Assembly: GCF_003334335.1 (NCBI RefSeq)
Contig: NZ_QOWQ01000002.1
Strand: one strand, 5' to 3'
DNA from: Escherichia coli
GTDB lineage: Bacteria; Pseudomonadota; Gammaproteobacteria; Enterobacterales; Enterobacteriaceae
Length of the DNA: 64,000 nt
In this document: positions 12,602 to 16,082 of the stretch, piece after piece
Layout: every line of letters begins with the position of its first letter
How positions within the stretch are numbered: position 1 is the stretch's first letter
Notes under the pieces: model-generated
What the model was told of the DNA's origin: nothing
Seen by the model: the letters and a program-made list of their open reading frames with translations, nothing else
The model's database searches: none
Position numbers and translations under genes: made by a program

Positions 12602-13804
12602 ATGTTAAAAGTGGAAATGTTATCCACCGGGGATGAAGTGTTACACGGGCAAATCGTTGACACTAACGCTGCCTGGCTGGCCGATTTTTTCTTTCATCAG
12701 GGGTTGCCATTATCTCGCCGCAATACGGTGGGGGATAACCTTGATGACTTAGTCACCATTCTTCGCGAACGTAGTCAGCACGCCGATGTGCTGATCGTTA
12801 ACGGCGGGCTGGGACCGACCAGCGATGATTTAAGCGCACTCGCCGCTGCGACAGCAAAAGGTGAAGGCCTGGTGCTGCATGAAGCCTGGCTCAAAGAGAT
12901 GGAACGCTATTTCCACGAACGTGGACGAGTAATGGCACCGAGCAACCGTAAACAAGCGGAGCTGCCTGCCAGTGCTGAATTTATCAATAACCCGGTAGGC
13001 ACCGCCTGTGGTTTTGCCGTGCAGCTTAATCGTTGCCTGATGTTCTTTACTCCCGGCGTACCGTCAGAATTTAAGGTGATGGTCGAGCACGAAATCCTGC
13101 CGCGCCTGCGCGAGCGTTTTTCTTTACCGCAGCCGCCGGTTTGTCTGCGTTTGACTACTTTTGGTCGTTCGGAAAGCGATCTGGCACAAAGCCTGGACAC
13201 TCTACAACTGCCGCCGGGCGTAACAATGGGCTATCGCTCCTCAATGCCTATCATCGAACTGAAACTCACCGGACCGGCAAGCGAGCAACAGGCGATGGAA
13301 AAACTGTGGCTGGATGTTAAACGTGTTGCCGGACAGAGCGTGATTTTCGAAGGCACTGAAGGACTGCCCGCGCAGATCAGTCGCGAATTGCAAAACCGCC
13401 AGTTCAGCCTGACGTTGAGCGAGCAATTCACCGGTGGTTTATTGGCTTTGCAACTTTCTCGCGCAGGTGCTCCATTGCTGGCGTGTGAAGTGGTTCCTTC
13501 ACAGGAGGAAACCCTGGCGCAAACTGCGCACTGGATTACAGAACGGCGGGCCAACCATTTTGCCGGGCTGGCACTGGCTGTTTCGGGTTTCGAGAACGAG
13601 CATCTCAACTTTGCGCTAGCCACGCCAGACGGCACTTTCGCTCTGCGTGTGCGTTTCAGCACTACGCGCTACAGCCTGGCTATCCGTCAGGAAGTGTGCG
13701 CAATGATGGCACTGAATATGCTGCGCCGTTGGTTAAACGGCCAGGATATCGCCAGTGAGCATGGCTGGATTGAGGTTGTTGAGTCCATGACCTTATCTGT
13801 CTGA
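12602..13804 (+). CDS. yfaY: CinA-like competence/damage-inducible protein (MoCF-binding / NMN-deamidase family)
   Basis: 400-aa ORF recognised as YfaY, CinA family. Confidence 0.88.
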   Translation: MLKVEMLSTGDEVLHGQIVDTNAAWLADFFFHQGLPLSRRNTVGDNLDDLVTILRERSQHADVLIVNGGLGPTSDDLSALAAATAKGEGLVLHEAWLKEMERYFHERGRVMAPSNRKQAELPASAEFINNPVGTACGFAVQLNRCLMFFTPGVPSEFKVMVEHEILPRLRERFSLPQPPVCLRLTTFGRSESDLAQSLDTLQLPPGVTMGYRSSMPIIELKLTGPASEQQAMEKLWLDVKRVAGQSVIFEGTEGLPAQISRELQNRQFSLTLSEQFTGGLLALQLSRAGAPLLACEVVPSQEETLAQTAHWITERRANHFAGLALAVSGFENEHLNFALATPDGTFALRVRFSTTRYSLAIRQEVCAMMALNMLRRWLNGQDIASEHGWIEVVESMTLSV

Positions 13805-14023
13805 TTCCGCCACTCTGTGCCGGTTTACTGCACCGGCACATTCCCCCTCCGGCAAAATTTGTCCAACCTGTTGTACTCAATAAGAAAAAATCCGTGCGCT
13901 GATTCACAAATTTGTGCGTAATTTCTCCAGTCTGCTGGACGAGGAGCGGGATTTGATGCGCTTCACAATTTTACTCCCCCTGAGCAACGAGACTGATTCC
14001 AGTATCTAAGACTGGAGTCCAGT

Positions 14024-14806
14024 ATGTTGGAATCAAGCAAAGTTCCCGCCCTGACACGGGCTATTGATATTCTCAATTTGATTGCCCGCATTGGCCCCTG
14101 TAGTGCTGCGACGATCATTGACACATTGGGAATCCCTAAAAGCACGGCCTATTTGCTGCTTAATGAACTCAGGCGTCAGCGTTTTCTTAGCCTTGATCAC
14201 CAGGAAAATTTTTGTTTGTGGACCAGGCTGGTGGAGCTTTCCGGTCATGCGTTAAGCAAGATGGATCTCCGGGAACTGGCTCGACCGCGTTTGACGCAAC
14301 TGATGGATACCACCGGGCTGTTATGTCACCTGGGGATTATTGATAACGGCAGCGCTTATTACATTTTGAAAGTGGAGTCATCAGCCACTATCAGCGTGCG
14401 TTCCCATGAAGGAAAAAGCCTTTCGCTTTATCGCTCCGGAATAGGTAAATGCCTGCTTGCCTGGCAACCTGCAGCGGTACAGCAAAGTATTATCGAAGGG
14501 CTGGTCTGGGAGCAGGCGACACCCACAACGATTACTCATCCACAGCAACTTCACGAAGAACTGGCGCGTATTCGCCGTCAGGGCTGGAGCTATGACAACG
14601 GCGAAGATTACGCCGATGTCCGTTGTGTCGCTGCGCCGGTGTTTAACGCCAATAACGAGCTTACCGCTGCGATCTCGGTGGTCGGTACCCGCTTACAAAT
14701 CAATGAAGAATACCGTGATTATCTGGCGGGCAAGGCCATTGCCTGCGCCAGGGATATTTCACGTCTGTTGGGATGGAAAAGTCCCTTTGACTTACAAGCC
14801 TCATAA
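14024..14806 (+). CDS. rhmR: IclR-family transcriptional regulator of L-rhamnonate utilisation
   Basis: 260-aa ORF with N-terminal HTH and IclR effector domain; heads the rhm operon. Confidence 0.9.
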
Positions 14807-14820
14807 CAATGGAGAACATC

Positions 14821-16026
14821 ATGACCCTACCAAAAATTAAACAGGTTCGCGCCTGGTTTACTGGCGGTGCGACAGCAGAAAAAGGCGCTGGCGGCGGTGA
14901 TTATCACGACCAGGGGGCGAATCACTGGATAGACGATCATATTGCCACCCCGATGAGTAAATACCGCGATTACGAGCAGTCACGCCAGTCATTTGGCATT
15001 AACGTTCTTGGCACGTTGGTTGTTGAAGTCGAAGCAGAAAACGGCCAGACCGGATTCGCCGTTTCGACAGCCGGTGAAATGGGCTGTTTTATTGTCGAAA
15101 AACATCTTAACCGTTTCATTGAGGGTAAATGTGTCAGTGATATCAAACTGATCCACGATCAAATGCTCAGTGCCACCCTGTATTACTCCGGCTCTGGTGG
15201 CCTGGTGATGAATACGATTTCTTGTGTCGATCTGGCTCTGTGGGATCTGTTCGGCAAAGTGGTCGGGCTTCCGGTTTATAAACTTTTAGGCGGCGCTGTT
15301 CGTGATGAGATTCAGTTCTACGCCACAGGTGCGCGTCCGGATCTGGCAAAAGAGATGGGCTTTATCGGTGGCAAAATGCCGACGCACTGGGGGCCACATG
15401 ATGGCGATGCGGGGATCCGCAAAGATGCCGCTATGGTCGCGGATATGCGTGAAAAATGCGGTGAGGATTTCTGGTTAATGCTCGACTGCTGGATGAGTCA
15501 GGACGTGAACTATGCGACCAAACTGGCCCACGCTTGCGCGCCCTATAACCTGAAATGGATCGAAGAGTGCCTGCCGCCACAGCAGTATGAAAGTTATCGC
15601 GAACTGAAACGCAACGCGCCAGTCGGAATGATGGTCACCAGCGGTGAGCACCACGGCACACTGCAATCTTTTCGTACGCTTTCAGAAACCGGTATCGACA
15701 TTATGCAGCCGGATGTTGGCTGGTGCGGTGGTTTAACCACGCTGGTGGAAATTGCCGCAATCGCCAAATCCAGGGGGCAACTGGTGGTGCCGCACGGTTC
15801 GTCTGTTTACTCTCACCATGCGGTGATCACCTTCACCAATACGCCATTCAGCGAATTCCTGATGACCAGCCCGGATTGTTCAACGATGCGTCCGCAGTTT
15901 GACCCGATTCTGCTCAATGAGCCGGTTCCGGTGAATGGTCGTATTCATAAATCAGTGCTTGATAAACCCGGTTTTGGCGTCGAACTCAATCGTGACTGCA
16001 ATTTGAAACGCCCCTACAGCCACTAA
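14821..16026 (+). CDS. rhmD: L-rhamnonate dehydratase
   Basis: Enolase-superfamily ORF; start set at the second ATG (MTLPKIKQV...), which is preceded by GGAG; the six-frame ORF starts at 14809. Confidence 0.9.
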
Positions 16027-16082
16027 TCACTCCGGGCGTTGCTGTGACAACGGTAACGCCCACATATTCTAAGGAGCTTTTT

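Follow-up and report, generated by a model that had tools for sequence, protein, structure and literature searches.

Which bases in front of rhmR, the first gene of the rhmR-rhmD-rhmT(yfaV)-rhmA(yfaU) operon, does the product of this gene recognise? RhmR (YfaX) is among the E. coli K-12 transcription factors without an experimentally defined site, and no RhmR binding, footprint, ChIP or expression experiment was found in the literature searched. Nor did that search turn up an operator for RhmR or XynR: the article on SL1344_3500/XynR gives no motif, and the protein called 'RhmR' in a paper about the rhamnose regulon belongs to the LacI family and is unrelated. The DNA analysed here is a stretch of 64,000 nucleotides from Escherichia coli (the window), which between positions 13600 and 14400 is 100% identical to E. 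coli K-12 MG1655; in the RefSeq annotation, rhmRDTA encodes an IclR-family regulator (Pfam domains HTH_IclR and IclR_C), an L-rhamnonate dehydratase, an MFS transporter and a 2-keto-3-deoxy-L-rhamnonate aldolase. A sequence-only reading had drawn attention to a perfect palindrome and a direct repeat in the 3' part of the 219 bp that separate yfaY (12602–13804) from yfaX/rhmR (14024–14806), and had proposed either an autoregulatory operator of the IclR-type regulator or a structured translation-initiation region. The features concerned are:

14024..14806, plus strand: rhmR (yfaX, b2248), IclR-family regulator in the RefSeq annotation, with its ATG at 14024–14026
14014..14017, plus strand: Shine-Dalgarno (SD) sequence GGAG, 6 nt 5' of the ATG and invariant in 36 aligned loci (34 distinct sequences)
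14011..14023, unstranded: the palindrome ACTGGA-G-TCCAGT of the sequence-only reading, with 6-nt arms and a 1-nt centre

The bases of the palindrome are as described, and the direct repeat TCCAGTAT is real (13998–14005 and 14018–14025), extending to GATTCCAGTAT (13995–14005) and GAGTCCAGTAT (14015–14025) with an offset of 20 bp. The placement of the element 1 nt before the ATG was mistaken: the palindrome abuts the ATG, and the second copy of TCCAGTAT overlaps its AT. Neither the palindrome nor the direct repeat, each taken alone, is above chance. The window holds 16 perfect 6+1+6 inverted repeats, compared with 17±5 in first-order Markov random sequence, and 67 direct repeats of 8-mers located at most 30 nt apart. 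A repeat finder also returned TGATTCCA (13994–14001) as complementary to TGGAATCA (14028–14035, rhmR codons 2–4).

Conservation gave a different picture. Altogether 43 rhmRDTA loci were examined (RhmR identity 56–100%); 38 orthologous loci represented about 20 enterobacterial genera (70–98%), and four distant operons were added, from Tolumonas auensis (75%), Vibrio mangrovi (65%) and two metagenomic contigs (59%). In 36 aligned loci (34 distinct sequences), a block from about −34 to +12 was almost invariant, whereas the rest of the spacer and the flanks diverged. The invariant or near-invariant columns among the 34 distinct sequences were 13990–14005, 14010–14011, 14014–14021 and 14024–14036. 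Unlike the palindrome or the repeat, this conserved block around them exceeds chance. It contains a box centred on the start codon, to which a weak copy and two distant boxes can be added:

14016..14033, unstranded: box O3, aGTCCAGTATGTTGGAat (AGTCCAGTATGTTGGAAT), TCCA-N6-TGGA, centre 14024.5 on the start codon
13996..14013, unstranded: box O2, ATTCCAGTATCTAAGACT, a weak copy with a strong left half-site and a degenerate right half
13924..13941, unstranded: box O1, TCTCCAGTCTGCTGGACG, TCCA-N6-TGGA, exactly 92 bp 5' of O3 and between two CRP-like sites
13860..13877, unstranded: box O0, TGTCCAACCTGTTGTACT, T[C/A]CA-N6-TG[T/G]A, 156 bp 5' of O3

A symmetrised matrix was built only from O0 and O1, and hence independently of the flagged region, and 63,983 positions of the window were scored with it. 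O0 (21.2 bits), O3 (20.7 bits) and O1 (19.5 bits) ranked first, second and third, and the best unrelated position reached 10.3 bits; O2 scored 2.0 bits (rank 58 of 63,983). The 18-mer centred on the palindrome scored −23.9 bits, versus +20.7 bits for O3.

These data bear on the literal form of the earlier proposal, in which a protein would bind the 13-bp palindrome ACTGGA-G-TCCAGT as such. E. coli, Citrobacter and several further genera have the palindrome in perfect form, and its TGGA and TCCA look like IclR-type half-sites. However, its frequency is that of chance, and its outer columns vary among the 34 distinct orthologous sequences in the left arm (14012, C23/T11; 14013, T29/C3/A2) as well as in the right arm (14022, G28/A5/T1; 14023, T29/C5). 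No compensating two-sided change in the palindrome pairs was found among these sequences, so the palindrome itself is not the conserved unit. In published IclR-family sites, the half-sites are arranged as TYCR-N5-6-YGRA (group 1) or with 7–8 nt between TGRA and TYCA (group 2) (PMC8222616); the palindrome half-sites TGGA-N1-TCCA, with centres 5 bp apart, fit neither arrangement. Read from its 5' end, the palindrome consists of the final O2 base, then two bases that vary, then the SD GGAG and the O3 left arm: it shares only this arm (TCCAGT) with the O3 inverted repeat, and its own left arm is the SD GGAG after the variable bases. It exists only because the SD GGA abuts, and complements, the TCC of the O3 left arm, and its inner part is invariant because it falls in the SD GGAG and the O3 arm GTCCA. 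On the combined grounds of frequency, arm co-variation, half-site spacing and matrix score, the palindrome was rejected as a functional unit, and we regard it as extremely unlikely to be what a protein binds. In the cross-species comparison that the sequence-only reading had suggested, the surrounding block was nearly invariant in the aligned loci, O3 was present in all loci examined, and the outer bases of the palindrome differed between genera. For RhmR binding, the relevant bases would be those of the box at 14016–14033 and not those of the palindrome at 14011–14023.

The inverted repeat of O3 (GTCCA-GTATGT-TGGAA, 14017–14032) was present in 43 of 43 loci. O1 was found at −98 from the ATG in 30 of the 38 orthologous loci and again 92 bp from O3 in Tolumonas and Vibrio, such that this fixed distance is kept in 32 of the 43 loci; a relaxed pattern placed O0 between −162 and −164 relative to the ATG in each of the 38 enterobacterial loci. 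The orthologous loci (255 kb) contain TCCA-N6-TGGA 69 times; 68 of these copies are situated at −98 or −6 relative to the ATG, compared with about 3.9 expected by chance. Directly observed here are the boxes as such, the degree to which they are conserved, the constancy of their spacing and their specificity. The spacer of O1 (6 nt) differs in almost every genome, with 39 distinct 18-mers among 43 loci, and its arms are conserved, which is the signature of a protein site. In three outgroup genera O0 reads AGTACAAC-CT-GTTGTACT, with perfect 8-bp arms; given TGTA in place of TGGA in one arm (TACA/TGTA in three genera), O0 could be recognised differently.

The O3 spacer and the GGAG are also under translation-initiation constraint, so the operator cannot account for all of the conservation; in the distant loci the SD is AGGAG in Tolumonas and L043 and weaker in Vibrio and L042. 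The third positions of rhmR codons 2–4 (14029, 14032 and 14035) are invariant, whereas those of codons 7–12 vary freely, indicating a constraint on the nucleotides and not on the protein. Moreover, O3 is kept with its N6 spacing where the start codon shifts from box positions 7–9 to 10–12 (Cedecea, Pantoea and L042), and also in V. mangrovi, where the ATG is lost and TTG is used.

The boxes accompany the operon into other genomic contexts, namely in Tolumonas (near an integrase), Vibrio, Mixta, Prodigiosinella and Cedecea. In T. auensis (CP001616.1, 1937–3241 and 4001–8197; L040), an aeromonad, rhmRDTA is complete, carries boxes O1, O2 and O3 and adjoins a phage-type integrase gene, which suggests horizontal transfer of the operon together with its operators. 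Three other Escherichia species (L037–L039) carry a truncated rhmR, and invariant positions are changed at two of these loci (GGAG to GGAA in L038, TTCCA to TTTCA in L039); to judge from these sequences, invariant positions of the box and the SD decay in Escherichia lineages without intact rhmR. Of 5,419 complete E. coli genomes, about 1,500 cover less than 80% of 13600–14400. In one of the genomes inspected (L045, NZ_CM125652.1), a deletion runs from the middle of O0 (after TTGTCCAACC, window position ~13868) into rhmA and has removed rhmR, rhmD and rhmT, and in another (L046, NZ_CP136025.1) an IS200/IS605-family element interrupts rhmR. The rhmRDTA operon appears to have been lost repeatedly.

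The direct repeat of the sequence-only reading reflects O2, the weak tandem site whose centre lies 20 bp 5' of the O3 centre and which overlaps the putative transcription start site (TSS, see below). In O2, TGATTCCA (13994–14001) is invariant and the following GTAT near-invariant, and the right half keeps only GA at 14010–14011. An invariant left half within GATTCCAGTAT and a right half reduced to GA explain both the direct repeat and the invariance of 14010–14011. The strong conservation of O2 could partly reflect the −10 element, the TSS and the 5' untranslated region.

Sites of the IclR family have been predicted by phylogenetic footprinting (Suvorova and Gelfand 2021, Front Microbiol 12:675815; PMC8222616), and b2248/yfaX, STM2292, ROD_26611, KPN_02653 and Tola_1174 are among the members of the group designated 'SSO_2309' in that work. 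The entries for b2248 and its orthologues in supplementary file 2 place sites at −163 (TGTCCAaCCtGTTGTACT), −99 (TcTCCAGtCtGcTGgACg) and −7 (aGTCCAGtatGTTGgAaT), spaced by 64 and 92. The b2248 sites are identical to O0, O1 and O3, which were reached here independently; these three boxes were therefore already predicted in 2021, as a computational result. The b2248 entries list no site at O2 (−27), and the prediction comes with no promoter or CRP context and no mention of a start-codon shift inside the box spacer. The present analysis adds to it O2 as a weak tandem site, the arrangement of promoter and CRP sites, the observation that the start codon can shift inside the box, and the decay in Escherichia lineages that have lost rhmR.

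The same survey gives the group 1 consensus as GKTYCRYW3-4RYGRAMC, with a subgroup NGT-12-ACN (NGTYCRAW4TYGRACN), and reports that the centres of IclR-family sites are most frequent between −3 and +1 relative to the translation start and that tandem sites lie 18–22 nt apart, which was attributed to tetramer binding (PMC8222616). The group 1 core is present in O3 (GTCCA-GTATGT-TGGAA), O1 (CTCCA-GTCTGC-TGGAC) and O0 (GTCCA-ACCTGT-TGTAC), and the boxes lie by the regulator gene and are conserved across its orthologues (O3 in 43 of 43 loci, O1 in 32). The O2–O3 centre spacing of 20 bp falls inside the family range, although O2 as a full site reaches only 2.0 bits. The locus shares with the IclR/TtgV paradigm of group 1 the inverted repeat core GTYCR...YGRAC, a site on the translation start and a candidate second site 20 bp away, a spacing consistent with two dimers on one DNA face as at the tandem tetramer sites of IclR and TtgV. 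It differs from the NGT-12-ACN subgroup in the outer bases of O3, which are A/T rather than of the G/C type, and from the IclR/TtgV tandem pair in that O2 has one good half-site and that two distal sites are found at fixed distances of 92 and 156 bp. O3 and the putative O2–O3 pair are ordinary instances of IclR-family trends, and the general view of these regulators is unchanged, since sites over the start codon with a second site some 20 bp distant are already on record as a trend in the family.

Directly after the yfaY stop codon, a hairpin with a 9-bp stem (TGTGCCGGT-N7-ACCGGCACA, 13816–13840) and no T-run was observed, and other genera have differing GC-rich hairpins at this position. This hairpin probably serves as the yfaY terminator, in which case rhmR would have a promoter of its own. 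A generic σ70 scan of 13500–14400 in E. coli returned no promoter, and the SMRT-Cappable-seq supplements contain no TSS entry for the rhmR locus. The following elements were assigned from conservation:

13893..13908, unstranded: CRP-like site 1, CGTGC-GCTGAT-TCACA, centre 13900.5, about −100.5 from the putative TSS
13952..13967, unstranded: CRP-like site 2, TTTGA-TGCGCT-TCACA, centre 13959.5, −41.5 from the putative TSS (class II position)
13989..13994, plus strand: putative −10 hexamer GAGACT (nAnACT), directly 5' of O2

In the −10 hexamer, A13990, A13992, C13993 and T13994 are near-invariant, and from this conserved nAnACT we infer a TSS at about 14001. The hexamer is weak in E. coli (3 of 6 consensus positions); at this position other enterics have AACACT or CACACT, Tolumonas and Vibrio have AATAAT, and L042 has TATACT with a TTGCAA −35 element at 17 bp. 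CRP-like site 1 is TGTGC-N6-TCACA in most genera and a perfect TGTGA-N6-TCACA in Tolumonas. In CRP-like site 2, GA-N6-TCACA is invariant in 22 genera and retained in Tolumonas and Vibrio, and the distance from its centre to the −10 hexamer is 29.5 bp, as in class II promoters. In line with these sites, yfaX is among the listed targets of a CRP genomic SELEX study (PMC3105977). O1 (−68.5 from the putative TSS) lies nearly midway between the two CRP-like sites, which are 59 bp apart, and the other two boxes lie at +4.5 (O2) and +24.5 (O3). A perfect 12-bp palindrome, CACAAATTTGTG (13905–13916), overlaps the right half of CRP-like site 1; it is probably fortuitous, and its right half is not conserved across other genera.

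An RpoN holoenzyme genomic SELEX peak has been assigned to the yfaY/yfaX spacer (PMC8743547). A σ54 promoter in the spacer was considered and rejected, because the sole good match to TGGCAC-N5-TTGC is at 13707–13722, inside yfaY and off the element. This sequence, TGGCACTGAATATGCT (plus strand, one mismatch to the σ54 consensus TGGCAC-N5-TTGCW), is situated at the 3' end of yfaY about 310 bp 5' of the rhmR ATG, in coding sequence (MALNML), and is retained in only about half of the orthologous loci. On a mapping through K-12 coordinates, it would be the likeliest source of the RpoN peak.

On the basis of the conserved boxes and their surroundings, the flagged bases probably belong to a DNA operator at which RhmR has several sites. 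The suggestion of an autoregulatory IclR-type operator was in substance well founded, given the conserved TCCA-N6-TGGA box on the ATG, but it had picked the wrong symmetry element. In addition to the start site, we infer which protein binds, the direction of its regulatory effect and the inducer. The recognised unit would be the 18-bp inverted repeat with the core TCCA-N6-TGGA, of the IclR group 1 NGT-12-ACN type. The rhmR promoter, with its weak −10 element, would be class II CRP-dependent, with CRP centred at −41.5. In the absence of inducer, a RhmR tetramer, bound as two dimers to one face of the DNA, would occupy O2 and O3, from about −6 to +35, and block open-complex formation or promoter escape, such that RhmR would repress its own gene together with the catabolic genes. 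Cooperative binding or looping that involves O1 and O0 may make repression stronger, and L-rhamnonate or a pathway intermediate would release RhmR. With transcription starting further 5', the effect of O2 and O3 would be that of a roadblock or would be exerted at the RNA level.

A different account would have the boxes bound by a regulator other than RhmR, or would ascribe their conservation only to promoter, SD, start-codon and N-terminal coding constraints. The −10 hexamer, the SD and the ATG do lie inside the conserved block, RpoN holoenzyme and CRP bind the spacer in vitro, and no experiment linking RhmR to the boxes was found. Yet the boxes travel with rhmR into unrelated neighbourhoods and match the IclR group 1 consensus, neither coding nor initiation alone can explain the invariance at synonymous sites and the retention of the box when the start codon moves, and neither O1 nor O0 has an SD or coding sequence around it. 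We consider this account quite improbable.

A more elaborate form of the RhmR operator can also be envisaged. At nucleoprotein promoters of the CytR-CRP type, tandem CRP sites flank a specific regulator bound between them. The rhmR promoter is like these in that O1 lies between two CRP-like sites, one of them at the class II position; it is unlike them in that RhmR belongs to the IclR and not the LacI family, that no protein-protein contact is known and that the main box is 3' of the promoter. The likeness is a resemblance only. In such an arrangement, the four RhmR boxes and the two CRP sites, whose spacings are rigidly kept from Escherichia to Tolumonas and Vibrio, would form one higher-order repression complex, and RhmR would act as a CytR-like anti-activator between the CRP dimers and loop to the start-codon operator. 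We hold this to be unlikely, though a little less so than the attribution to another regulator or to constraint; if true, the translation start would be free to shift within the non-contacted spacer of the operator, and the architecture would be new for an IclR-family regulator.

The second proposal of the sequence-only reading, a structured initiation region, would have an mRNA fold sequester the SD and the AUG so that RhmR translation is low or conditional, by means of either a hairpin at 13985–14029 or a GAGUCCA/UGGAAUC stem with the AUG in its loop. The segment 13975–14060 indeed folds with −24.3 kcal/mol (z = −2.3), with GGAG and AUG paired, and an inverted-repeat operator necessarily encodes a small hairpin around the AUG. 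From the putative TSS, however, the fold is weak (−7.3 kcal/mol, z = −0.6), and orthologues behave similarly (z between +0.2 and −0.8 in four species). In the minimum free energy helix two double changes were counted, the same as in shuffles, and most of the variation breaks pairs; the nested helices (13994–14001/14028–14035 and 14011–14015/14019–14023) had no double changes. Concerted G-to-A changes in both CCAGT copies, as seen in Kosakonia and Phytobacter, break the predicted RNA pairs. Compensatory changes or a curated RNA family, either of which would mark a cis-regulatory RNA, were not observed: covariation did not exceed that of shuffles, and Rfam gave no match at E ≤ 1. Furthermore, the same box at −98 and −162 lies 5' of the promoter and would not be transcribed, and the position of O1 and O0 upstream of the promoter points to recognition at the DNA level. 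RNA structure was rejected as the main explanation after the minimum free energy hairpin, the nested helices, the folds from the putative TSS and Rfam had been considered. The proposal found no support in covariation, in the folds or in Rfam, and a regulatory structure of this kind is highly unlikely.

The RhmR operator can finally be compared with the region upstream of yjhI, the regulator gene of yjhIHGF (xylonate) in E. coli, whose product is a paralogue with 32% identity to RhmR and which is likewise the first gene of its operon. In E. coli K-12 (L044), a CRP-like sequence (TGTGT-ACAAGA-TCACA, 15981–15996) is followed by a perfect 14-bp palindrome, TTCAGCATGCTGAA (16016–16029), that shares its TnCAG-N4-CTGnA layout with the RhmR box, and both yjhI and yfaX are CRP SELEX targets. 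The two differ at the specificity positions (TTCA/TGAA versus TCCA/TGGA in the RhmR box) and in location, the yjhI palindrome being about 70 bp 5' of the ATG (16093), in contrast to O3, which is on the ATG. From its layout, TTCAGCATGCTGAA is a candidate YjhI operator. Two TTCCA half-site-like sequences are located between this palindrome and the SD of yjhI.
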